48,390 nt of DNA. Source: a virus. Its lineage: Duplodnaviria > Caudoviricetes. Below are positions 6,420-48,390 of this stretch, piece after piece. The stretch lies in IMG/VR virus record IMGVR_UViG_3300037408_000837, positions 1-48,390 of that record; one strand, given 5' to 3'. The notes beneath the pieces were generated by a model. That model did no database searches and was not told where the DNA came from. It saw only the letters and a list, made by a program, of their open reading frames with translations. Position numbers and translations under genes: made by a program. Within the stretch, counting starts at the first letter, position 1; every line of letters starts with the position of its first letter.

Positions 6420-6739
6420 CCGCGACCATCCTGGAGAGCATCGGCAGCATGCGGGCCAGCCTCGACGAGCTGGAGACCGCCTACCACACCGCGGCGGTGA
6501 GCCACTACAACGAGGTCGCCGGGCGGCTGGCGCAGCGCCTGGGCGCGCCGCAGTTGCCCGAGCTGCTCGCGCTCCCGGCGCTGAGGGCCCTGCAGCGGCG
6601 TGGTGCCGCGGCGCGCGACGGGCGGCCGAAGCACCGCAAGGAGCACCGGGCCATGGGAGCGCTCGACGTCGAGGGCCTCGAGGAGCTGGACGCGGGCCAC
6701 ACCGTGGCGGTGCGGGCCGGCGTCGGAGTCGAGGAATGA
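6416..6739 (+). CDS. Hypothetical protein
   Basis: ATGA overlaps, GC3 bias. Confidence 0.7.
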
Positions 6740-7245
6740 TGATGCCGGAGCAGGGAGGGAACGGCGTGTGCCGCAACAGACCCTACGTGCGGCGCAGCGC
6801 ACCGCGGGCGCGCACGCTGATCCTCTACGGCCGGCGGCTGTACGCGATGGAGTACACCTACGGCCCGAGCGGAGAGATCACCGGGCAGGCGCGGCGCCTG
6901 GCGGCGAAGGTGCCCAGGTCGGCGACGCTCCTGCCGCGCTCCCTGCCGGCGACGCGGGCCGAGTGCGAGGACGGGCCGCGGCCGTGCCCCTACGTGAGCT
7001 GCAAGCACCACCTGTACCTGGACGTGAACAAGTCCGGGTCGATCAAGATGAACTTCCCCGAGATCGAGCCAGGGGAGATGCTCGAGAGCTGCGCGCTCGA
7101 CGTGGCCGCGCGGGGCGGCGCGACGCTCGAGGAGGTCGGCGCAGCGATGAGTCTCACCCGGGAGCGGGTGCGTCAGGTCAAAGTGCGCGCAATGGCGAAG
7201 ATGAAGCGCGCGGGCGTGCCCTCGCTGCCGGGATCCGAGGACTGA
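6736..7245 (+). CDS. Zn-binding sigma-70 region 4 HTH protein (myxobacterial type)
   Basis: C...[16 protein letters not shown]...[25 protein letters not shown] (sigma 4.2 recognition helix). Confidence 0.85.
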
Positions 7246-10130: not shown

Positions 10131-10799
10131 CTACGCAGCAGCCCGCATCTCGCGCAGCGCTCGCATCTTCATGAACCAGAACGAGCCCCCGGCCTGCAGG
10201 CCAAGATCGGCCGCTACCTGCGCTTCCGTCGGGTCGTCGCCCACGAGGAACATCCGCTCGATTACTCGCCGGTCAACGGGTCGAGCGTGCGACAGCAGCC
10301 GTTGCACGTCGATGCCGGCCTCGAGGCGGCGCTGCCAGTCGGGCGCCTCCAGGCTGTCGATTAACCGCGTCTTACTGCCGAGTCGCACGGGATCGTACAG
10401 CGAGCCGACCGTCGGGTACCCCGGCAGCGTGCCGGCCTTCTTCTGGCACCGACCCCGAGCGTCCTGCCTCAGCGGACCAGAGCCCCGTCGGATCGTGATG
10501 GTCGTGCGCTGCGTGTTGGCGAACTCGGCGATCCGGTTGCGCACCCAGTCGAAACAGTAGCTCGGGAAACTCGAACCGCCGTCGGGACGCCACCGCTGCA
10601 CCGCGATCATGATTCCGACCTGGCCCTCGGCCTCGAGGTCCTCGCTCTCGGGCCACTGGCGCTCTCGGTGATAGCGCTTGGCGAGTTGCTTCACCATGCC
10701 CTGGTTGGCCAAGACCAGCTCGGCGAGGGCTCGCTGGTCGCCGTGGTCACGCCACGCGGTCACCCGTGCGGCCTGCTCGCTGTGGGAAAGGGAAAGCAT
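10131..10799 (-). CDS. Phage sigma-70-family sigma factor
   Basis: Region 2: LVLANQGMVKQLAKRY...DLEAEGQVGIMIAVQRWRPD.G.SFPSY..DWVRNRI; region 3 SLYDPV; region-4-like VIERMF...TEAQVAADLG. Confidence 0.82.
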   Translation of the reverse strand: MLSLSHSEQAARVTAWRDHGDQRALAELVLANQGMVKQLAKRYHRERQWPESEDLEAEGQVGIMIAVQRWRPDGGSSFPSYCFDWVRNRIAEFANTQRTTITIRRGSGPLRQDARGRCQKKAGTLPGYPTVGSLYDPVRLGSKTRLIDSLEAPDWQRRLEAGIDVQRLLSHARPVDRRVIERMFLVGDDPTEAQVAADLGLQAGGSFWFMKMRALREMRAAA

Positions 10800-23297: not shown

Positions 23298-23566
23298 GCG
23301 AAGTTCACCTCCAGCGCGAAGGCCAGAACGCTGACCATGTCGCCCATCTTGCCGGAGAGCACCTCGTCGATGACCGGCAGGAGCTGCTCGCCGTCGATCG
23401 TCGCGGTCTCCAGCAGGGTGTCGACCAGGTCCTCGGGCAGGTCGAGCGGAGTCTGAAAGCCGGTCGACCGCCGGAGCTGCTGGATGCGCCCCAGCGCGGC
23501 GAACTGCCGCCGAGCCGGCAGGCGCTGCAGCTCGTACTTTTTCCCGCCGATCACGCGCTCGGGCAT
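23219..23566 (-). CDS. Tail assembly chaperone G
   Basis: MPERVIGGKKYEL...ALEVNFAGFF; between tube and tape measure. Confidence 0.8.
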   Translation of the reverse strand: MPERVIGGKKYELQRLPARRQFAALGRIQQLRRSTGFQTPLDLPEDLVDTLLETATIDGEQLLPVIDEVLSGKMGDMVSVLAFALEVNFAGFFSARPGKGKAEPAVVDPAVPSEG

Positions 23567-23988
23567 CAGACCATGCTCCCGATGGTGCTGTCGGCCGCGA
23601 GGCTCTCGACGGTCCACATGACCTTCGGGTGATCGGTCCCGCGCTCGACCTTCGGCATCTTCACGAAGCGGCAGCGATGTGCCGCCACCTTCGTGGTCCC
23701 CTTGACCTCCTTGAAGAGGCACTCGAACGCGGGCGCCGGGACCGCGCGCTGCACGTTCCGCTTCGCCGACAGGACGTCGTTGTCGGCCGAGTCCCCGCGG
23801 GTCGTGAAGGTGATCTTGACGCCGTGGTCCTTCTGCTTGACCCAGTTGGCGCCCGTGGCCCCGTGGTAGGACTTGAAGTCGTCCTCGTTCGCCTCGATCT
23901 CGATCATGGTGCCGTCGTCGAAGGCGGTGACGCGGTAGCCGTCGATGATGAGGATCGAGTTGTAGGGATCGAATGCGTAGTTCGCCAT
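23566..23988 (-). CDS. Tail tube protein (DUF3277-like)
   Basis: YAFDP....IIDG..VT.F.DG..I; G..G; follows sheath. Confidence 0.8.
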   Translation of the reverse strand: MANYAFDPYNSILIIDGYRVTAFDDGTMIEIEANEDDFKSYHGATGANWVKQKDHGVKITFTTRGDSADNDVLSAKRNVQRAVPAPAFECLFKEVKGTTKVAAHRCRFVKMPKVERGTDHPKVMWTVESLAADSTIGSMV

Positions 23989-26628: not shown

Positions 26629-27576
26629 CTACGCCGCGGCGGTGATGCCGTCGCCGTACGCCAGACCCTTCGGCCTGTAGCAGCACACGCCGACCGTGCG
26701 CGCCACGCACGCGGTGTAGAACAGGAGGCCGCCGTTGCGGCTCTCCATCGGCAGCGCCTGGAACTCGGCCGGGATGATGTGCTCGAGCACCTCGGGGCTG
26801 CGGCGGTAGGCGACCATGCGCCCCACGCCCGCGTCGCCCGCGTAGTCCGCGGCGACCCAGGGGACCACCGTGCGGATGTACTGCGAGCCCGCCAGGAAGA
26901 CCTCGAGGATCGACCGGCTCTCGTAGTCGTTGAAGGGGGTCGTGTTGATGAGCGCGAAGGCCGTGCTCGGGATGACGAGGGTGTCGGGCTGCTCGACCTC
27001 GTTCGTGTCGGTGATGATCTGCTGCGCGACGCCGTTCATGTCGCGCAGGATCAGCGAGCCCGACTTGGCGGACCACAGCTTCGAAGCGCCCGTGCCGTCC
27101 GCGGGCACCGTGTACGTGCAGGTCCCCGTCTGGTTGAAGAGCCCCCTGAGGGCGTGGTCGGTGTTCCCGGACTGGGCGATCTCGTCGAGGAACTGCTCGA
27201 TGGCGCGCCGCGCGGCCGCGCCCTTGCGCTGGTCGAGCGGGACGCCGGCGTACTGCGCGGCGAGCAGCTCCTGGCGGCTGAAGCTGTACGAGGCGCCGAG
27301 CGAGTACGGCTTGATGGTCGTCTCGGTCGAGGTGGTGTCGACGCTCGGCAGGTCGTTCGCCTTGTCGCCGATCCAGTCGGCCTTCCCCTTGAGGTCGTAC
27401 TGGCGGTACGTGATCGACTCGGCCCCCTCGGGGACCTCGTTGTTGGTCGGGATGAGCTGCCGGCCCTTGAACGGGATGGTGGGCGGCGCGAGCGCCGCGG
27501 CGCGCACGTACTCGAGCTGGCCCGCGACGAAGGCGCTGTCCACGTCGAGGCGAAGGTTCTTGCGGTCCATGGTCAT
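26629..27576 (-). CDS. Major capsid protein (DUF2184 family)
   Basis: QLEYV; P.GA.S.TY; DLP.VD; EL.AA...G.PLD..K..AARRA; GL.N. Confidence 0.9.
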   Translation of the reverse strand: MTMDRKNLRLDVDSAFVAGQLEYVRAAALAPPTIPFKGRQLIPTNNEVPEGAESITYRQYDLKGKADWIGDKANDLPSVDTTSTETTIKPYSLGASYSFSRQELLAAQYAGVPLDQRKGAAARRAIEQFLDEIAQSGNTDHALRGLFNQTGTCTYTVPADGTGASKLWSAKSGSLILRDMNGVAQQIITDTNEVEQPDTLVIPSTAFALINTTPFNDYESRSILEVFLAGSQYIRTVVPWVAADYAGDAGVGRMVAYRRSPEVLEHIIPAEFQALPMESRNGGLLFYTACVARTVGVCCYRPKGLAYGDGITAAA

Positions 27577-27582
27577 GTCTCC

Positions 27583-28098
27583 TTACGCGCTCGGCGTGAC
27601 GGTCGACGCGGCCTGCTTGTTCATGACGTCGATCTCGGCCAGCGCGAGCGAGCCGGCGCCGGTCGCCGCCGTCAGGAACTTGATCTGGGCGCTCGTCTCG
27701 AGCGTCTCGTCGGTGACGTCGGCCTTCAGGATGCGGCCCGGCGCGGTCACGTAGTCGACGTAGCCGCGGTCGCCCACGGCCACGGTCTCGCCGACCACGA
27801 CCCAGACCCGACCCTTGTTGACGATGTTCAGCTCGCGGTCCGCCTTGATGCCCGTGGTCCCGAGGTCGTCGGTCGGGTCGTAGGCGTGCGAGTGGGCGAC
27901 GATGCCGACGAAGGCGTCGTCGCTGGTCGAGGGGAGCAGCGCCCCCTTCTCGGCGGTGCCCTGGACGACGGCGTAGCCGAAGGGGATCTCCGCGCTGGCC
28001 TCCTCGTTGAAGAAGCTGCGGATGTCGGCGACGCCCAGGTCGGCGAGCTGGCCGGCGATGGACGCCGTCATGGTGGTGCTGTAGTCGGTGATCGCCAT
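27583..28098 (-). CDS. Capsid decoration/cement protein
   Basis: AGQLAD...IPFG.AV..G; G.VWV; between DUF2213 and MCP. Confidence 0.78.
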   Translation of the reverse strand: MAITDYSTTMTASIAGQLADLGVADIRSFFNEEASAEIPFGYAVVQGTAEKGALLPSTSDDAFVGIVAHSHAYDPTDDLGTTGIKADRELNIVNKGRVWVVVGETVAVGDRGYVDYVTAPGRILKADVTDETLETSAQIKFLTAATGAGSLALAEIDVMNKQAASTVTPSA

Positions 28099-33264: not shown

Positions 33265-33436
33265 GTGGTGTGTGGTGTGTGGTGTGTGGTGTGTGGTGGT
33301 AGTCGTGCTGGGGAGGATCATGTGGGCCAGTTCACGGCAACCGTTGCCGAACCGTTACCTAACCCTTACCCAAACGGTTACCCAAACCCTTTGGGTAACC
33401 CCAGGATCTCCTGTTCCTGTTCCTGTTCCTGTTACT
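33265..33436. repeat. Origin-like repeat array: (GTGTGGT)n heptamers, TTACC/AACCC iterons, (TCCTGT)n
   Basis: Directly visible short tandem repeats in the largest intergenic region. Confidence 0.7.
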
Positions 33437-33613
33437 GCTTAACTTCAATTACAACCGCGCGTGTGCGCGGGATCCCTGCTAGCAGCGAGCACGCACTACC
33501 AGCACGCGCCCAGCGCACCCTGCAGCTCGGCGTGGAGTCCTCGTGCGAAAAGTGCGAGGAGAGTATGCGAGGGGATTGGACACGAGCGCTGCAGGCGCGT
33601 AGTGGTGTAGAGC

Positions 33614-34597
33614 ATGGCGCCCGGCGTGTTGTGCGTGCTCGAGAGCTTCAGGCGCCACATGGACAACGGGCGCTGGCTGTTCCAGCGGGGTCTGCAGGCG
33701 GCCGGCTGGACGGCGGCTGGCCATGGTCTCCCGGCCGGCGAGGGCCTAGCGACCACGGACGTACTCGAGGCCGTGCAGCAGGCCGGCGCGCGGGCCGTGC
33801 TCCTCTGGCCCCGCTACGAGTGGGACAGCCGCGAGTGGGTCGGCGACGAGGTCAAGCCGGAGCACTGCTTCCGCGGCTGGGACCGCCTGCCTCCCGACGT
33901 GCTGCGTGTCGCCGTGCTGCACGACGCGCGCTCGGCCATGCGCCAGCAGCGGGCGTGGCTGCGGGACTTCAAGCCCGACGTCGTGCTGGGCTGGTACCAC
34001 GCGCAGTCCGTGCTCCCGTTCTGGCCCAGCATCAAGCCCGAGCAGTACGAGCGCACCTACCACATCCTCGACGCCTCCGCAGTGCCGCCGGTCGAGAGCC
34101 GCTCACTTCGCTGCGCCATCTCGGGCGCGCAGAACGAGCAGGTCTACCCGCTCCGCATGCGGGCCAGCCTGGCGGCCTACGCGGGCGAGCTCGGCCCCGG
34201 TGTCGACGTGCCGGCTCACCCGGGCTACGTGCAGACGGGCACGCACAGCAACGACTACGTCGGCACGCTCGCGCGCTACCGGGTGGCGCTGTGCACGGCG
34301 AGCACGTTCGACTTCGCGCTGCGCAAGCTCTTCGAGGCGACGGCCGCGGGCTGCCGCGTGATCACCGACCTGCCGGAGTACGACGTGCTGCCGGCGATCG
34401 ACGGCAACCTGCGCCGCGTGCCGCGCGACATCTCGATCCCGCACCTGCGGCGCCTCATCGACCAGCTCGCCGACACCTGGGACCTGGAGCAGCAGCGGGC
34501 GTGGTCGGCCGCGGTCCGGGAGCGGTACGACTACCGCACCGAGTGCGCGCGGGTGGCCGCGGCGCTCGAGCAGCGAGCAGCCGGGAGAGCCGCATGA
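33614..34597 (+). CDS. Glycosyltransferase (GT-B, CgeB/YkvP-like)
   Basis: YPLR; HPGY; Y...L..Y.VA.CT.S......RK.FEA.AAGC..ITD. Confidence 0.8.
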   Translation: MAPGVLCVLESFRRHMDNGRWLFQRGLQAAGWTAAGHGLPAGEGLATTDVLEAVQQAGARAVLLWPRYEWDSREWVGDEVKPEHCFRGWDRLPPDVLRVAVLHDARSAMRQQRAWLRDFKPDVVLGWYHAQSVLPFWPSIKPEQYERTYHILDASAVPPVESRSLRCAISGAQNEQVYPLRMRASLAAYAGELGPGVDVPAHPGYVQTGTHSNDYVGTLARYRVALCTASTFDFALRKLFEATAAGCRVITDLPEYDVLPAIDGNLRRVPRDISIPHLRRLIDQLADTWDLEQQRAWSAAVRERYDYRTECARVAAALEQRAAGRAA

Positions 34598-35430
34598 TCC
34601 CACCCGGCGAGCAGTGGGCGGTGCAGATCGACGTGACGAACGCCTGCAACCGCAAGTGCAGCAACTGCACGCGCCCCGCGGTGGCGCACTCGGCCGAGCG
34701 CTGGTTCATGTCCGTCGAGCAGTTCCGCGCCGCGGTCGACGCCGTGCGCGACTTCCCTTCGGCCTCACCGCGCGACCGCCTGGGCCGGCCGAAGGTCGTC
34801 GGGATGATCGGCGGCGAGCCGCTGCTGCATCCGCAGTTCGAGCAGCTCTGCGGCGAGATGCTAGCGCTGCCGCTCCACGCTCGTGGGCTGTGGACGGGCC
34901 TCGACTGGAAGCGGACGCGGTGGGCTGGCCTCATCCAGTCGACGTTCGGCCAGGGGTACATCAACAACAACCAGCACTCGACGCCGTGCTTCCACCAGCC
35001 GGTGCTCGCGGCGTCGTGCGACCTCGTGCCGGACGTCGACGAGCGCGCTCGGCTGATCGCCCGGTGCCCGATGCAGGCGGAGTGGGCGTCCAACATCACG
35101 CGGCGCGGGTTCTTCTTCTGCGAGGTGGCCGGGGCGCTGGCCGACGTACTGCCCGGTCCCCCCGGACTGCCGCTTGCGGCGGGCGTGTGGCGGGCACCGC
35201 TCGCGGCGTTCGGCGCGCAGATCGACTACTACTGCCAGCACTGCGGCGTGTGCATTCCGCTGCAGGGCCGGCGCGACGCCGAGGAGACCGACGACATCTC
35301 GCGGTCGAACCTCGAGCTGCTCACCGCGAGCCCACGGGTGCAGGCCGGCGGCTACGTCGTCGCCACGCCGGAGAACGTCCGCACCCGCGACGGCTGGCGT
35401 CCCTGCCGATACCTGCGCCAGGAGGCGTGA
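34594..35430 (+). CDS. Radical SAM enzyme with C-terminal Cys cluster
   Basis: IDVTNACNRKCSNC (CxxxCxxC); GGEPLLHP; FFCE; YCQHCGVC. Confidence 0.88.
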   Translation: MIPPGEQWAVQIDVTNACNRKCSNCTRPAVAHSAERWFMSVEQFRAAVDAVRDFPSASPRDRLGRPKVVGMIGGEPLLHPQFEQLCGEMLALPLHARGLWTGLDWKRTRWAGLIQSTFGQGYINNNQHSTPCFHQPVLAASCDLVPDVDERARLIARCPMQAEWASNITRRGFFFCEVAGALADVLPGPPGLPLAAGVWRAPLAAFGAQIDYYCQHCGVCIPLQGRRDAEETDDISRSNLELLTASPRVQAGGYVVATPENVRTRDGWRPCRYLRQEA

Positions 35431-36077
35431 TGCGCTACGACCCGGACGAGTACCTCGCGCGCGTGCCGAAGAAGCTCGTGGCCGGCGCGATGAACGACTA
35501 CAGCCTCACCGAGGACGACATGCGCGTGGCCGTCGCGCTGTTCCGAGAGCACGGCGTGCGCTACGTGCTCGAGTTCGGCGTCAACGACGGCAACACCGCG
35601 GTGGCGGTCCTGCGCCTCATGCCGGAGGTCGAGCGCTACGTCGGCGTCGACCTGGTCAAAGCGCTGTTCCCCGAGCGCGGCATCGTGCCGATCACTCCCG
35701 GCTGGCGCGCTGACGGCGACCCGCGCTTCATCCCCGTGGCCGTGGACGGCACGCCGGACTGCTTCGGCGGTCACCTGCGGCGGACGCTCGAGCAGCTCGG
35801 GGTGGACGCCTTCGACGCGCTCATCATGGACGCCGACCACGAGGAGAAGCCGACCCAGCGCGACACCGAGCTGTGCTGGCCGTTCCTGCGCCAGGGAGGG
35901 CTGTGTCTGTGGCACGACTACGGGGTCCACTCGCGGCAGCACGACAACGGCAAGGACTTCCCCCTCAAGGCGTACCTCGACAGGCTCATCGCCTCCGGGC
36001 GCCAGATCCACACCCCGGACCAGCAGAGCCGGGACCCGTGGACCTGCGTCTCCGTGGCGTGGGAGGTCAAGCTCTGA
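35430..36077 (+). CDS. Class I SAM methyltransferase (Methyltransf_24-like)
   Basis: VLEFGV..G.T; YVGVD; FD...MDADH; LRQGGL..WHDY. Confidence 0.85.
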   Translation: MRYDPDEYLARVPKKLVAGAMNDYSLTEDDMRVAVALFREHGVRYVLEFGVNDGNTAVAVLRLMPEVERYVGVDLVKALFPERGIVPITPGWRADGDPRFIPVAVDGTPDCFGGHLRRTLEQLGVDAFDALIMDADHEEKPTQRDTELCWPFLRQGGLCLWHDYGVHSRQHDNGKDFPLKAYLDRLIASGRQIHTPDQQSRDPWTCVSVAWEVKL

Positions 36078-36823
36078 GCTTCATCCGCGCCACCTGGTGC
36101 ACGAGCGGCAACGTCGGCGACCGCCTGGCGCCCTGGCTCCTCGAGAAGCTCACGGGCCAGCAGGCGCTGTACGTTGACCAGCGCGACCCGATCCCGAAGA
36201 TCCTCGGGTGCGGTTCCATCCTCGCGTGGAGCTCTGCCACGACCATCGTGTGGGGCTCGGGCCTGCTCACCCGTGACGACCCGGTGCACCCGCTCGCCGA
36301 GATCCGTGCTGTCCGGGGGCCACTGTCGCGTGAGCGCGCCCTTGCCTGCGGCTGCGAGTGTCCGGAGGTCTACGGCGACCCTGGCCTGCTGGCGCCGCGG
36401 GCGTTCCCGCTCGAGCGCGAGCCGACCTACCTGGTGGGAGTGGTCCCGCACTACGTCGACCAGTACCTGCTCGACTTCTGGCACCTGCCCGACGGCTGGA
36501 GGTTCATCTCCGTGTTCGCGGGCGTGGAGGAGTTCATCCGGCAGCTCTGCTCATGCCGGGTGGTGCTCTCTTCCGCGCTCCACGGCCTGGTGCTCGCCGA
36601 CGCCTACGGCATCCCGAACGCGCGGCTGGTCATGGGCGACCGCATCGGCGGGGATGGGACGAAGTTCCTGGACTACTTCGCCAGCGTGAAGCGGGACGCC
36701 GGCCTCGCCATCCCGTGGCGTCACATCGAGCGCGGCATGCAGGCGGCCGACATCGAGGCGCGCTGCCAGGTGGGGGAGCTCGACGTGGCTCCGCTGCTGG
36801 CCGCGCTCAGGGGGAGCCTGTGA
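36074..36823 (+). CDS. Polysaccharide pyruvyl transferase family protein (apparent CTG start)
   Basis: NVGD.L.P; GSIL; VWGSG; AVRGPLS; YGDPGLL; G.VPHYVD; SSALHGLVLADAYGIP; KF.DY..S. Confidence 0.88.
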   Translation: MSFIRATWCTSGNVGDRLAPWLLEKLTGQQALYVDQRDPIPKILGCGSILAWSSATTIVWGSGLLTRDDPVHPLAEIRAVRGPLSRERALACGCECPEVYGDPGLLAPRAFPLEREPTYLVGVVPHYVDQYLLDFWHLPDGWRFISVFAGVEEFIRQLCSCRVVLSSALHGLVLADAYGIPNARLVMGDRIGGDGTKFLDYFASVKRDAGLAIPWRHIERGMQAADIEARCQVGELDVAPLLAALRGSL

Positions 36824-37554
36824 CTGAACGGTTCAAGACCCTCGAGATCGAGATCAACTCGACCTGCGACATGGCGTGCCCGCACTGCGATCGCTTCATC
36901 GACTGCGCGCCTACGAGCTCCATGACCGTCGAGCAGATCGGGCGCTTCGTCGAGGAGTCGCTGGTGCTCGGCTGGGAGTGGGACCGCATCCACATTCTCG
37001 GCGGCGAGCCCACCCTGCACCCGGAGTTGCACAAGGTGGTGGACGCCCTGGTGCGTTACCGCGAGCGCTACCCGAACGTGTTGCTCCGCCTGATCTCCAA
37101 CGGCTCCGGCAAGCTGCTTCGGCACCGTCCATTCCTGGAGCGGATGGGCATTGCCATCAACGTCGAGTCGAAGGGTGGTGGCCTGCCATCGTGGTTCACA
37201 AACGCTCGGCGCGCACCCATCGACGTGCTGGGTAGCAAGGACCCGCTGCCGCCGTGCGCCATCTTCGGGATCTCGGGCTGCGGCATCGGGCTCACGAAGC
37301 ACGGTTTCTTCCTGTGCGGGGCGGGCGCGTCATGCGCTCGCGTGGCGGGACTCGACATCGGCATCCAGCGGCTGGCTGACCTGACCTACGAGGCCGCGCT
37401 CAAGCAGGCCAAGGCCGTCTGCAACATCTGCTCGCACCACAACCTGACACGGGTCCCGGCAGCGCAGGACGCCAGCATCTCGCCCTTCTGGCAGAAGGCC
37501 ATTGCGGCCTACCAGAGGCAGGCTCCCCGCATGACCCTGTACGGTGCCGCATGA
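36820..37554 (+). CDS. Radical SAM enzyme (paralog of 34594-35430)
   Basis: IEINSTCDMACPHC; GGEPTLHP; SNG; CGIGL...GFFLC; VCNIC. Confidence 0.88.
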   Translation: MTERFKTLEIEINSTCDMACPHCDRFIDCAPTSSMTVEQIGRFVEESLVLGWEWDRIHILGGEPTLHPELHKVVDALVRYRERYPNVLLRLISNGSGKLLRHRPFLERMGIAINVESKGGGLPSWFTNARRAPIDVLGSKDPLPPCAIFGISGCGIGLTKHGFFLCGAGASCARVAGLDIGIQRLADLTYEAALKQAKAVCNICSHHNLTRVPAAQDASISPFWQKAIAAYQRQAPRMTLYGAA

Positions 37555-38156
37555 CTCACGTCGAGTGGTTGTGCTCGCTCTTCCCGTCCGGCGGCTTCTT
37601 CGTCGAGGCTGGCGCGCACGATGGCATCGGCGATTCGACGACCTACGCGCTCGAGAAGGCGGGTTGGTTCGGCCTCTGCGTCGAGCCGTCCCGCGCGTTC
37701 GCCGGGTTGAAGCAAAATCGCAAGTGCAAGGTCGACGACCGCTGCCTGTGGAACCGCGACGACGGCCTCGTCGGCTTCATGCACGTCGACGGCAACCAGG
37801 TCGAGTTGTCGGGGATCGTCGAGTGTTTCGGCGACCACTGGAACCGGGCCGGCTACAAGCACAGCATGACCACACGCCCGACGGTGACGTTGACCACGTT
37901 GCTGTACCAGCATCTCGCCCCGGTGCGCATCGAGTTCCTCAGCCTCGACACGGAGGGCTCGGAGTTTCAGATCCTGGACGTCCACGATTTCGACCGCTAC
38001 CGCTTTCTGACCATGTCCGTCGAGCACAACCGCGTTGAAGCCAAGCGGCAAGCGGTGCGGGGACTGCTGTTCTCCAAGGGCTATCGGCTGTCGACGGCGG
38101 TGCCTGCGGATGTCGAGGACTACTTCATCCACGAGTCTGTGCAGGTGCGAACGTGA
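37551..38156 (+). CDS. FkbM-family methyltransferase
   Basis: GFFVEAGAHDG...S.T..LE..GW.GL.VEP; I.FLSLDTEGSE..IL; VEHN. Confidence 0.9.
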   Translation: MTHVEWLCSLFPSGGFFVEAGAHDGIGDSTTYALEKAGWFGLCVEPSRAFAGLKQNRKCKVDDRCLWNRDDGLVGFMHVDGNQVELSGIVECFGDHWNRAGYKHSMTTRPTVTLTTLLYQHLAPVRIEFLSLDTEGSEFQILDVHDFDRYRFLTMSVEHNRVEAKRQAVRGLLFSKGYRLSTAVPADVEDYFIHESVQVRT

Positions 38157-38779
38157 GGGGCATCACCGTCTGCGTCGACTACGCCGACCTGCTCAAGTAC
38201 ACCCTGCCGCGCAACGCGGACCACTTCGACGAGGTCCTCGTCGTGACGGCGCCGCGCGACGAGGAGACGAAGCGCGTCGTCTCGCGGGTGAGCAACGCGC
38301 GCTGCTACGAGACGGAGGCCTTCTACACCCAGGGCGCCAAGTTCAACAAGGGCGCGGCGATGGAGGAAGGCTTCGACGTGCTCGGGCGGCACGGGTGGAT
38401 CTGCATCTTCGACGCGGACACCCTGTTGCCCAACGTGCTGTCGTGGCCCGAGGCGTCCGGCTGCATCTACTCCGCGCACCGCCGGATGTGCGTCGACCCG
38501 ACGCAGGACCTGCAGGCGGTGCTCGCGGAGCAGTGGCAGCAGTTCGCGGTCTGCCCGGATCGAGAGCCAGCCGGCTACTGCCAGATCTTCCACGCGGACG
38601 ATCCGGCGCTCGTCAAGCGGCCCTGGTACGGGACGCACTGGGAAGACGCGCGCGGCTGCGACTCGACGTTCAACCAGCACTGGCCGCGGAAGCGGTGGAG
38701 CTGGCTCCAGTGGCAGGTCTGCCACCTGGGTGAGTGCACGGTGAACTGGGGCGGGCGCGTGTCGCCGAGGGTGCCGTGA
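38153..38779 (+). CDS. Glycosyltransferase (GT-A/GT2-like)
   Basis: ITVCVDY.D.L..TL; VVT...D..T; FNKG; DAD (DxD); GY.Q.F; D..F...W. Confidence 0.82.
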   Translation: MRGITVCVDYADLLKYTLPRNADHFDEVLVVTAPRDEETKRVVSRVSNARCYETEAFYTQGAKFNKGAAMEEGFDVLGRHGWICIFDADTLLPNVLSWPEASGCIYSAHRRMCVDPTQDLQAVLAEQWQQFAVCPDREPAGYCQIFHADDPALVKRPWYGTHWEDARGCDSTFNQHWPRKRWSWLQWQVCHLGECTVNWGGRVSPRVP

Positions 38780-39369
38780 TCTACGTGCTCGGCGAGAGCC
38801 ACGCCGGCTGTACGTTCGCCGGCATCCCGGGGGTTGAGGCGGTGCTCGTCGGCACGCTCACGCTCAAGAGGGTGGGGCTCCCCGGTGACCGCTCGCTGGC
38901 AGACGCGGTGGCCAGGCTCCAGCTCGGGCCCGCGGATGTCGTGCTCTTCATGTTCGGCGAGATCGACGTGCGCAAGCGGCTGAAGCAGCGGCTCGAGCGC
39001 GAGGGGCGCTACCTGCATGACGTGCTGCTCGACAACGTTGCCGCCTACCTCGACGTCATCCGCACGCTGGACCTGCACGGGGCGCGCCGCGGCCTCGTGA
39101 GCGTCATCCCGCCGAACCGCTCGCGCGAAGACAACGCGGACATCATCCTGCCGTCGTGCTCCGACGAGGAGCGGGCCGAGTACACGAGCATGCTCAACTT
39201 CCTGCTCGCGGCCGGCTGCACCGGGTTCGATTTCATCTACGTCGACGTGTACTCCGCCTACAAGGACGAAGACGGCATGCTGCCGCTCGAGTGCTCGCAG
39301 ATCGGCGGCTCGCACGTTTCTGACATCACCAGGGCGCGCGACACCCTCGTGAGCATGGGCCTGCTGTGA
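38776..39369 (+). CDS. SGNH/GDSL-like hydrolase or acyltransferase
   Basis: N-terminal VLGESH (GDSH-like); FGEIDVR; C-terminal His (GGSHV). Confidence 0.7.
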   Translation: MIYVLGESHAGCTFAGIPGVEAVLVGTLTLKRVGLPGDRSLADAVARLQLGPADVVLFMFGEIDVRKRLKQRLEREGRYLHDVLLDNVAAYLDVIRTLDLHGARRGLVSVIPPNRSREDNADIILPSCSDEERAEYTSMLNFLLAAGCTGFDFIYVDVYSAYKDEDGMLPLECSQIGGSHVSDITRARDTLVSMGLL

Positions 39370-40442
39370 ACCGTTGCGCCGGCTCCGATTGGCCGCGTGT
39401 GCTGATCCCTGCGCCGGGCTGCTTCCCGCCGACGGTCGTCCCGCGCCGTGACGAGCGGGTGCTGCACCTGGCCTTCTGGAACGCGGTGTCCGACGGCCGT
39501 GGCCTCATGCGCGCGCTGTCCACCCTCGGCGAGTACCTCAAGATCGACTGGCGCCAGGCCGCCATCGAGCGTGCGCTGGAGAGCCAGGCGCTGCGCGCCG
39601 CGGCCGCCATCCAGCCGACGCTCGTCTTTCTCGAGCTGCGCGGCCCCACCCCTCGCCGCGGCGGGCCCACACCCGCACTGCTCCGGCAGGTGCGCGCCCT
39701 CTGCGATCCCCGCGCTGTCCTCATGGTCTTCTACGGCGACCAGTTCCACGAGCCGGCCGACACGGCGAACGCCTGGCTGCTCGAGCTCGCGCGCGCCGCC
39801 GACGTCTTCCTGGTCTGCAACACCCAGCACCCGGCCGAGTACGCCCGCCTCGGCGTGCCTCACCCGGGCTACCTGCAGGCCGGGTTCGACGCCGAGGTCT
39901 TTCGCCCGGGCGCGCCGGCGGCTGACGCCCCGCCGCTCGCGTTCATGGGCACGCGGCACCGGCAGCCCGCCTACCGCCAGCGCAACGAGGTTGTCGACCG
40001 CCTCGCCGAGGCCTGCCCGGGCGCGCTGCGCTGCTACGGCTTCGGCTGGGAGGCGAAGGGCACCTTCCTCGCGCCGGCCGCCGAGGCCGCGGTCTACGCC
40101 AGCGCGCGGGCGGCGCTGTGCATGTCGATCCGCAACGACCTGCCGCGGTACACGTCCGACCGGCTCTTCCGGGCGCTCGGGAGCGGAGCCGTCGCCCTGG
40201 TCGAGCGGTTCGCTGACTGCGAGGACCTCGGCCTGGTCGACTCGGTCAACTGCTTCGTCTGGCGCGGCTGGGATGAGTTCGGCGGGCTGCGCTCCCTGGT
40301 CGAGGACCTGCAGCGCGGCTACTGGAGCCCGGAGGACCTGCAGGAGCTACGTCGGCGCGCCGCCGCGCTCGCGCACGAGGTGCACACCTGGGGCGCGCGG
40401 ATGGGGGAGCTGGCGGCGATCGTCGAGGCGGTGCGGGGCTAG
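39366..40442 (+). CDS. Glycosyltransferase (GT-B, CgeB/YkvP-like)
   Basis: GFD..VF.P; F.G; YG.GW; Y..A; YTSDRLF..LG.G; HTW..R. Confidence 0.82.
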   Translation: MNRCAGSDWPRVLIPAPGCFPPTVVPRRDERVLHLAFWNAVSDGRGLMRALSTLGEYLKIDWRQAAIERALESQALRAAAAIQPTLVFLELRGPTPRRGGPTPALLRQVRALCDPRAVLMVFYGDQFHEPADTANAWLLELARAADVFLVCNTQHPAEYARLGVPHPGYLQAGFDAEVFRPGAPAADAPPLAFMGTRHRQPAYRQRNEVVDRLAEACPGALRCYGFGWEAKGTFLAPAAEAAVYASARAALCMSIRNDLPRYTSDRLFRALGSGAVALVERFADCEDLGLVDSVNCFVWRGWDEFGGLRSLVEDLQRGYWSPEDLQELRRRAAALAHEVHTWGARMGELAAIVEAVRG

Positions 40443-40723
40443 GCGACGTTCCCGAGGCTCGCCCCGCAGGCGCTGCACACGCGGTAGCGCTGCTTGATGA
40501 GCAGGCCGATCCAGAAGAGCGGCAGGCAGCAGATGAGCAGCACCACGAAGACCACCCACCCCGCGGTGCTGATCTTCGTGAGCTCGACCGGCCGCGCCTG
40601 GCTGCGGCAGAACGGGCACTGCCAGACGGGGACGGGCGGCGCGTACGGCGGCGCGTACGGCGCCGGGTAGCCGTAGGCCGGCGGCGGGTAGGGGTACGAT
40701 CCCGGCGGCGGCCACTGGCTCAA
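40439..40723 (-). CDS. LITAF-like Zn-ribbon membrane protein
   Basis: Pro/Tyr-rich N-terminus, CPFC-hydrophobic segment (ICCLPLFW)-CSAC; TTGA overlap with GAGGTG RBS. Confidence 0.75.
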   Translation of the reverse strand: MSQWPPPGSYPYPPPAYGYPAPYAPPYAPPVPVWQCPFCRSQARPVELTKISTAGWVVFVVLLICCLPLFWIGLLIKQRYRVCSACGASLGNVA

Positions 40724-47942: not shown

Positions 47943-48230
47943 ATGAAGAAGACCGCGAAGCAGTACGTCATCGTCCGCACCTACTCCGCCGGCGTCCACG
48001 CCGGCACCCTCGTGAGCCGTGACGGCAAGGAGGTCGTACTCGAGGACGCGCGCCGCATCTGGTTCTGGAAGGGCGCCAACACCCTGCACGAGATCGCGCT
48101 GCACGGCGTGGGTGTCGGCAGCAAGATCAGCGAGCCCGTCGAGTCGATCACGCTGACCGAGTCCATCGAGGTTATCACCGCGACCGCGGACGCCGAGAGG
48201 AATCTCAGCGCGGCCGTCTGGAGCAAGTAG
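47943..48230 (+). CDS. DUF6948-like protein
   Basis: YVIVRTYSAGVH.G.L......V.L..ARRIW.W.GA.TL.EIA..GV; AAGGA RBS. Confidence 0.8.
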   Translation: MKKTAKQYVIVRTYSAGVHAGTLVSRDGKEVVLEDARRIWFWKGANTLHEIALHGVGVGSKISEPVESITLTESIEVITATADAERNLSAAVWSK

Positions 48231-48390
48231 ATGCCGTCGGGGAAGGGCGACGGCTCCGGCTCCGGCTACGGCTACGGCTCCGGCTCCGGCTCCGGCGACG
48301 GCTCCGGCTCCGGCGACGGCTCCGGCTCCGGCTCCGGCGACGGCTCCGGCTACGGCGACGGCGACGGCTACGGCTCCGGCTCCGGCTCCG
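48231..48390 (+). CDS. Gly-X repeat protein (partial, runs off window)
   Basis: MPSGKGDGSGSGYGYGSGSGSGDG... directly after DUF6948 stop. Confidence 0.6.
   Translation, partial: MPSGKGDGSGSGYGYGSGSGSGDGSGSGDGSGSGSGDGSGYGDGDGYGSGSGS

Follow-up and report, generated by a model that had tools for sequence, protein, structure and literature searches.

The stretch of DNA analysed here (the window, designated G000) is one IMG/VR record, IMGVR_UViG_3300037408_000837, of 48,390 bp and a GC content of 0.69, from an uncultured phage which PHROG profile matches to terminase, portal, capsid, sheath, baseplate and integrase genes place as a temperate myovirus. Positions 33614-40442 are occupied by a cassette of nine + strand open reading frames (ORFs; designated g1 to g9), which forms an operon of 6.8 kb, makes up 14.1% of the contig and probably serves to attach O-glycans to virion proteins in the cytoplasm; these glycans would be tailored by radical chemistry and with methyl, pyruvyl and acyl groups. 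A sequence-only reading had described nine co-oriented, overlapping genes on about 14% of the genome, in the order GT-B glycosyltransferase (GT), radical S-adenosylmethionine (SAM) enzyme, methyltransferase (MTase), pyruvyl transferase, radical SAM enzyme, FkbM MTase, GT-A GT, SGNH-like protein and GT-B GT; this layout was recovered, and the family order was confirmed by Pfam matches and by structure models of g1 and g2. Loci from other sources are labelled L followed by a number, and sequencing runs X4, X5 and X8.

The nine genes and their predicted enzymes

The cassette and its leader comprise the following features:

33411..33608, + strand: non-coding leader, kept in a close relative described below (12 differences in 198 nt), with the left border of a swapped block at 33608
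33614..34597, + strand: g1, GT-B glycosyltransferase with a GT4-like fold, core gene (model predicted local distance difference test, pLDDT, 96)
34594..35430, + strand: g2, twitch-type radical SAM enzyme, core gene (model pLDDT 96)
35430..36077, + strand: g3, class I MTase (PF13578 by Pfam), predicted sugar O-methyltransferase
36059..36823, + strand: g4, polysaccharide pyruvyl transferase family (PF04230), start at GTG 36059 or CTG 36074
36820..37554, + strand: g5, second twitch-type radical SAM enzyme (Pfam; profile homology and conserved Cys)
37551..38156, + strand: g6, FkbM-family MTase (Pfam)
38153..38779, + strand: g7, GT-A glycosyltransferase with an invariant DxD motif (D87, D89), core gene
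38776..39369, + strand: g8, SGNH-fold protein, Ser8 and His180 conserved
39366..40442, + strand: g9, second GT-B (PF13524 by Pfam)

Neighbouring genes overlap at all eight junctions, by 1-4 nt, or by 19 nt at g3/g4 if g4 starts at GTG 36059. GC content at third codon positions (GC3) was 0.934 in the cassette, compared to 0.925 in structural and 0.941 in early genes, and its relative synonymous codon usage (RSCU) correlated with that of the structural and early genes at 0.988 and 0.992, respectively. There was no clear transmembrane (TM) segment in the nine proteins, for which the highest 19-residue Kyte-Doolittle means were 0.75-1.53, and no flippase family among the Pfam matches of the cassette. 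The cassette adjoins terS and is divergent from the terS-terL-portal arm, at a distance of approximately 870 bp. Codon bias in common with the phage, divergence from the terminase/capsid arm and the lack of a TM segment and of a flippase had all been claimed from the sequence alone, and all held up.

Pfam matches exceeded the curated cut-off for g3 (Methyltransf_24), g4 (PS_pyruv_trans), g5 (Radical_SAM), g6 (FkbM) and g9 (PF13524) and fell below it for g1 (PF13524, E = 0.0027), g2 (Radical_SAM, 2e-5), g7 (GT2-like, 0.0015) and g8 (GDSL, 0.004). Sequence searches of the PDB returned nothing useful for g1, g4 and g9 and weak matches for g7 and g8. The g1 model aligned with 6kih (VIA Z 19.1, root mean square deviation (rmsd) 4.2, 291 residues aligned), with many GT-B chains tied near Z 18-19; because of these ties the fold is silent on the acceptor. 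No relationship between g9 and g1 was detected.

The g2 protein carries a CX3CX2C motif (C18/C22/C25), a short barrel and a C-terminal auxiliary Cys set typical of twitch radical SAM dehydrogenases and epimerases, and besides the motif C158, C176, C214 and C217 are invariant in 80 homologues. Its best structural match was SpeY (7wzv; VIA Z 16.1, rmsd 3.5, 235 aligned), followed by BtrN (Z 11.3) and then by a match at 8.7; SpeY and BtrN were also the best profile matches, although weak (E = 0.004 and 0.012). Both enzymes have roles in the synthesis of aminocyclitol antibiotics. Chromosomal relatives of g2 are mostly longer, and many lie among genes for CDP-glucose dehydratase, epimerase, GT2 and GT2 with tetratricopeptide repeats (GT2-TPR). 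On the strength of these fold matches and of the nucleoside diphosphate (NDP)-sugar enzyme and GT2 neighbours, a sugar is the presumed substrate, and g2 is predicted to be a sugar dehydrogenase or epimerase. The second radical SAM enzyme, g5, is a full-length distant paralogue of g2 (hhalign 97.4%, 220 columns). Viperin was considered as an identity for g5 and rejected, the one match given by PADLOC among 12 proteins, a partial viperin-core match, covering the SAM core only.

Among the other genes, g3 is 50-57% identical to genes in L002, L005 and L007, and homologues of g4 adjoin homologues of g9 in L224, L235 and L241. Clusters of g7 look-alikes in the Atlas were 77-100% viral, and g7 is the candidate initiating glycosyltransferase. 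The g8 protein, predicted to be an O-acyl transferase or esterase, is without the Asp that its family has before the His; among its relatives there are fusions to MTases, GTs and a sulfotransferase.

The leader likely holds the cassette promoter. A promoter motif common to the late operon and the cassette was sought and rejected, as one inverted 12-mer pair was found and this was reached in 64 of 200 shuffles. In the gap between the two transcription units, positions 33335-33435 hold short repeats of iteron type together with a run of hexamers and a perfect hairpin of 11 bp (33376-33400), an arrangement which we take to resemble the origin-bearing linker of lambda-O-type initiators; the ORF covering this region had no Pfam match. 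Two sigma-70-related genes (10131-10763 and 6736-7245), one of them at the end of the late arm, are candidate drivers of the divergent cassette. At its other end, g9 is overlapped by a convergent gene (40439-40723) for a small protein rich in Pro and Tyr, which has a hydrophobic stretch as well as a LITAF-like zinc ribbon.

The CheckV completeness estimate for the record is 55%. The window genome is probably near complete nonetheless, given that the record begins and ends within Gly-Ser repeat ORFs of one type and that the g8 cluster is also present in another record, 48,384 bp long. Positions 47943-48390 carry a DUF6948 gene and a Gly-Ser/Gly-Tyr repeat ORF and positions 1-302 the tail of a similar gene and a second repeat ORF, the genes at the two ends being a tandem pair where the assembly breaks.

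Recurrence in other phages and exchange of the g1-g8 block

Fifty viral loci, forming 41 clusters at 90% identity, were collected with the g1 alignment. Of these loci, 47 contained g7, 45 contained g2 and 43 contained the g1-g2-g7 trio, which was present in 30/31 loci with long flanks and in 36/41 clusters; six of the seven exceptions were cut by a contig end. The remaining genes were less constant, g5 occurring in 9/50 loci, g6 in 8/50 and always with g5, and g4, g8 and g9 in none of the 50. Six genes (g1, g2, g3, g5, g6 and g7) recur together at 45-58% identity and in shuffled order in L002, L005 and L007, directly before the portal gene in all three and directly after the terminase gene in L002 and L005. 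The g9 family is also phage-borne, and in L211 its homologues lie between the terminase gene and the portal gene. A gene annotated for the virion or for packaging stood in the same uninterrupted strand run in 16/41 g1 clusters and 34/72 g2 clusters, counts which are a lower bound, many flanking genes being unannotated; several genes upstream of the trio (the family of L174:2807), whose identity as tail genes is unconfirmed, were left out of the structural counts. In at least 16/41 clusters the relatives are placed either between the terminase and portal genes or within the genes for neck and tail.

A FastTree phylogeny of g2 (133 rows, after removal of three duplicate loci and of hits shorter than 215 amino acids) placed the window protein in a set of 12 rows (support 95), the others including 10 viral rows and one metagenome-assembled genome (MAG) of Planctomycetota. 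Most chromosomal homologues formed a separate branch, in which 21 of 24 rows, out of 28 genome rows in all, were of this kind. A search with single proteins gave no close viral relative for g2 or TerL, and g1, g2, g7 and g9 had no match in 50,697 GenBank phage records (tblastn, E 1e-3 for g1, g7 and g9), of which 19 were matched by g4 and two by g5, weakly. The closest syntenic matches were phage cassettes, as opposed to chromosomal O-antigen loci with a signature of recent transfer, and the codon usage matches the genome; the syntenic result which the sequence-only reading had named as a refutation of its proposal was thus not obtained.

Such repeated placement among virion genes bears on the view that the enzymes make a small diffusible or cytoplasmic glycoside, aminocyclitol-like, and modify no macromolecule. 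The PDB titles of SpeY and BtrN place them in aminocyclitol antibiotic pathways and many of the top GT-B matches of g1 act on small molecules, but the cassette contains no precursor synthase, aminotransferase or exporter, and together with the genomic placement this makes a small product very improbable.

A further GT-A-like family with an FQDD motif and no Pfam match, often joined to a small Cys-rich domain, accompanied the trio in 22/41 clusters (for example L174:8556-9896, L187:8153-8875 and L165:8969-9685). The closest homologues of the cassette carry Planctomycetota names, and a homologue of the window ParB was found in 1/301 genomes of the phylum of a Myxococcota MAG. One metagenome contig (L229:6301-13195) carries a g9-family cassette after the gene for an amidase that shares 66% identity with the window lysin; its source is probably a phage with a related host.

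A close relative of the window phage was found in run X4, with 205 differences over approximately 4,570 bases of the terminase-portal region (about 95% identity). One 7,531-bp contig from this run follows the window through the leader as far as 33608 and again in g9 from 39367 onwards, and the two matching parts are separated by 6,437 bases of other sequence, so that the borders of the swap are 5 bases before the start of g1 and at the start of g9. Contigs from X5, a run of the same study, end at the same two points; both runs are probably DNA, and this evidence comes from the one study, in which the replacing bases are known by their length. Run X8 contained fragments that differ by 2-6% from g2, g4 and g5. 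The nine genes are thus a mosaic of a swappable g1-g8 block and a g9 that stays; the sequence-only reading of them as a single nine-gene system is corrected accordingly.

Replacement at gene borders would also fit a recent, partly working chimera, in which g1-g8 came from another phage lineage without the transferase specific to its acceptor, and g9 has lost the GT2 that usually accompanies it. That the partner GT families were not found in the window agrees with this, as does the missing Asp of g8; against it, all nine frames are intact and overlapping with their motifs kept, their codon usage matches the genome, and the fragments in run X8 differ by a few percent. A chimera of this kind is accordingly considered quite improbable, and the glycosylation of virion proteins by a working cassette is preferred.

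Candidate acceptors and the probable target of the proposed glycan

Three virion proteins of the window are candidate acceptors:

26629..27576, - strand: major capsid protein, candidate acceptor (phrog_264, match 7-311 of 315, profile 21-321/321)
27583..28098, - strand: capsid decoration-type protein, candidate acceptor (phrog_563, match 4-164 of 171)
23566..23988, - strand: tail tube protein by its position after the sheath, weaker candidate acceptor (Ser at -3)

Four residues of the capsid protein, starting with Thr, lie beyond the PHROG profile match, as do the last seven residues of the decoration protein, of which four are Ser/Thr. In a set of 62 loci selected by the cassette, in which distinct C-termini were counted, capsid, cement and tube proteins ended in Ser/Thr in 23/35 cases, compared to 8/53 for other structural proteins and 146/933 for the remaining proteins. 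As a control, 80 loci were fetched by capsid alignment alone, the tube alignment being too diverse; among these, 17 loci that extend from terminase to tube, and in which no glycosyltransferase or radical SAM match was found, gave 7/50 Ser/Thr ends, and unclassified loci gave 25/114. The difference was significant for capsid and cement proteins (10/15 with the cassette, 2/33 in the control; Fisher P = 2e-5) and borderline for tube proteins (13/20 and 5/17; P = 0.05). The likely acceptors are therefore Ser/Thr residues close to the C-terminal end of the capsid, decoration or tail-tube protein. In one phage group (L192-L194) the capsid and tail tube share a terminal Ser-Pro-Ser tripeptide, a candidate acceptor tag; in L005, too, both proteins have Ser/Thr as their last residue.

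Virion glycosylation is favoured because the trio recurs in 43/50 loci, often within virion gene runs; because Ser/Thr ends of capsid, cement and tube proteins are commoner where the cassette is present; because the best fold matches of g2 are cyclitol dehydrogenases and its chromosomal relatives lie among NDP-sugar and GT2 genes; because the profile searches for base-modifying enzymes set out below found few in cassette phages and none in the window; and because a relative of about 95% identity has g1-g8 replaced. The analysis shows the gene content, the modelled folds of g1 and g2, a core that recurs, replacement of the block and, in relatives, Ser/Thr ends; around these findings a pathway can be proposed. 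Host NDP-sugars would serve as donors, no gene for their synthesis being seen in the window. The GT-A enzyme g7 would add the first sugar and the GT-B enzymes g1 and g9 would extend the chain (the order is a guess), while g2 and g5 may act on a sugar carbon by oxidation or epimerisation, either in the NDP-sugar or in the growing chain. O-methylation by g3 and g6, a pyruvate ketal added by g4 and the addition or removal of an acyl group by g8 would complete the glycan. The sequence-only reading had named the virion as the likeliest target, with DNA and host glycans as alternatives, and the comparative evidence fits that ranking, the glycan itself being inferred.

Several observations weigh against this interpretation. 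In the window itself the last residue is Ala in the capsid and decoration proteins and Val in the tube protein, and Ser/Thr stand at -4, -2 and -3, respectively. The contrast was weaker within one matched capsid family (7/13 and 7/50; capsid alone 1/5), tubes of loci without the cassette often end in Ser/Thr as well (5/17, and 10/21 in unclassified loci), and ends of this type numbered 2/12 in four capsid-selected loci with a single GT-like hit and 6/16 in distant g2 loci. Absence of the cassette in the controls covers only 10 kb on each side, and related phages are not independent in these counts. The first annotated neighbour was a DNA-metabolism gene or integrase in 8/41 g1 clusters (2/72 for g2). 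Extra GT families occur in 31/41 g1 clusters and GT2 in 13/15 listed g9 loci (of which 5 built the profile, duplicates included); neither was found in the window, where the mosaic may be incomplete. Finally, the cassette and the late operon are divergent in the window, and the cassette lies near the integrase region, a position also typical of genes expressed in the lysogen.

This last arrangement would suit conversion of the host, during lysogeny or infection, by cytoplasmic modification of a host glycan (lipid-linked O-antigen, lipopolysaccharide (LPS) core, exopolysaccharide (EPS) repeat unit or host glycoprotein) that blocks competing phages. Pyruvyl transferase, FkbM and PF13524 proteins are typical of surface-polysaccharide loci, and block swapping fits selection driven by receptors. 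The same idea has been put forward for the GTs of the pelagimyophage island (PMC7029224). On the other hand, the same genes lie within virion gene runs in relatives, the cassette has no membrane component, the Ser/Thr ends are on virion proteins, and profiles of g1, g7 and g9 matched 0, 1 and 0 of 401 bacterial genomes sampled per search (those for g1 and g9 without a positive control). Host conversion is for these reasons regarded as unlikely, and the virion remains the preferred target.

Packaged DNA was weighed as a further target, the GTs then glycosylating its bases and the other enzymes tailoring the sugar. T4 alpha-glucosyltransferase has the same fold as g1 (Z 17.8, about 1 or less below the best GT-B matches), and phage DNA GTs of both folds are known, also near structural genes (10.1101/2023.12.21.572611). 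However, no thymidylate-synthase-like (PF00303), C5-methyltransferase (C5-MTase; PF00145) or tRNA-guanine transglycosylase (TGT) gene was found in the window, the PF00303 and PF00145 controls being positive, which agrees with the sequence-only reading, in which no hydroxymethyl-base enzyme was seen. Such genes occurred in 6, 1 and 0 of 47 records, respectively, and in 2, 1 and 0 of the 17 near-complete ones; phage DpdA may escape PF01702, the model behind the TGT count of 0/47, and the TET/JBP oxygenase family PF12851 gave 0/47 in a search in which no control matched. A scan of 63 window proteins also gave no DNA polymerase. Hypermodification of DNA is thus improbable. Thymidylate-synthase-like domains lie in frames of 385-474 amino acids in five trio phages (L314-L316), and a sixth lies in a frame of 645 amino acids; these are possible base-modifying enzymes.

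If the glycan is indeed on the virion, glycosylation of particles would be common among uncultured phages of other hosts and would use radical SAM sugar chemistry. Exchange of the block would change the surface chemistry of the particle and imply selection upon it, by recognition of host surface or defence, by grazers or by decay. The C-terminal Ser/Thr signature names testable acceptors, and compact soluble enzymes allow reconstitution without the host. A wider proposal is offered tentatively: that these genes represent a widespread and so far undescribed 'virion serotype' system of phages, in which, in siphoviruses and myoviruses that are not related to each other, a portable core of GT-B, twitch radical SAM and GT-A enzymes writes a radical-tailored O-glycan on the C-terminal Ser/Thr tails of capsid and tail proteins, with the glycan type switched by block swaps at gene borders as in bacterial O-antigen loci.

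Comparison with known systems

Serotype conversion by GtrABC/Oac employs a membrane flippase and a GT-C or multi-pass acyltransferase; the cassette, unlike these, contains no such Pfam family and reaches a hydropathy maximum of 1.53. It shares GT-A and GT-B folds with phage DNA glycosylation clusters (C5-MT with 5mYOX and GT, or T-even type), but differs in that C5-MTase, thymidylate-synthase-like and TGT genes are not found in the window and are rare in relatives. The fold and the four conserved auxiliary Cys of g2 are those of SpeY (7wzv) and BtrN (4m7s/4m7t), whereas identity with g2 is 13-14% and these enzymes act in bacterial antibiotic pathways.

The host recognition cluster of pelagimyophages, which are T4-like, is a variable island of approximately 45 kb that lies among the structural genes and contains GTs and radical SAM cassettes, and the authors who described it interpret it as modifying the host O-chain and as changing gradually (PMC7029224); the window cassette, in contrast, is a compact operon subject to block replacement. 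Fibril clusters of giant viruses (Mimivirus L136-L143 and R132; Megavirus mg534-539) contain GTs, a putative pyruvyl transferase and a methyltransferase, with clade-specific content (PMC9614988). By their description they resemble the cassette in joining virus-encoded GTs to pyruvyl and methyl tailoring, there for virion glycans, but they belong to eukaryotic viruses and encode NDP-sugar synthesis, and no radical SAM enzyme is mentioned in the description consulted (PMC9614988).

The closest parallel in the way of working is virion glycosylation in mycobacteriophages. Cluster O phages carry an MTase and GT cassette between head genes, which in Corndog (gp35-38) are those for portal and protease (PMC4351075), and F1 phages carry GT genes near the genome end (PMC11256854). 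Capsid and tail tube are reported to be modified (PMC11600133, PMC12619734), with glycans reported at the C-termini of both (PMC12619734, citing Freeman 2023). The window resembles the Corndog and Che8 cassettes in having several soluble phage GTs and a methyltransferase, and differs in its two radical SAM enzymes, pyruvyl transferase, SGNH protein and second MTase, and in being a myovirus with the cassette divergent from the late operon. The lack of a tblastn match of g1, g7 and g9 at E 1e-3 counts against membership of that group and not against a similar way of working; the cassette probably functions as these do, without homology to them. The description 'undescribed system' in the sequence-only reading was therefore too strong, given the cluster O cassettes (PMC4351075) and the pyruvyl/methyl clusters of giant viruses (PMC9614988). 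A literature search, which most subscription journals lay outside, found no paper on radical SAM sugar chemistry in phage or virion glycosylation. Beside these systems, three features are new here: a portable core of GT-B, twitch radical SAM and GT-A genes, the signature of terminal Ser/Thr residues, and the swap of a block at gene borders.

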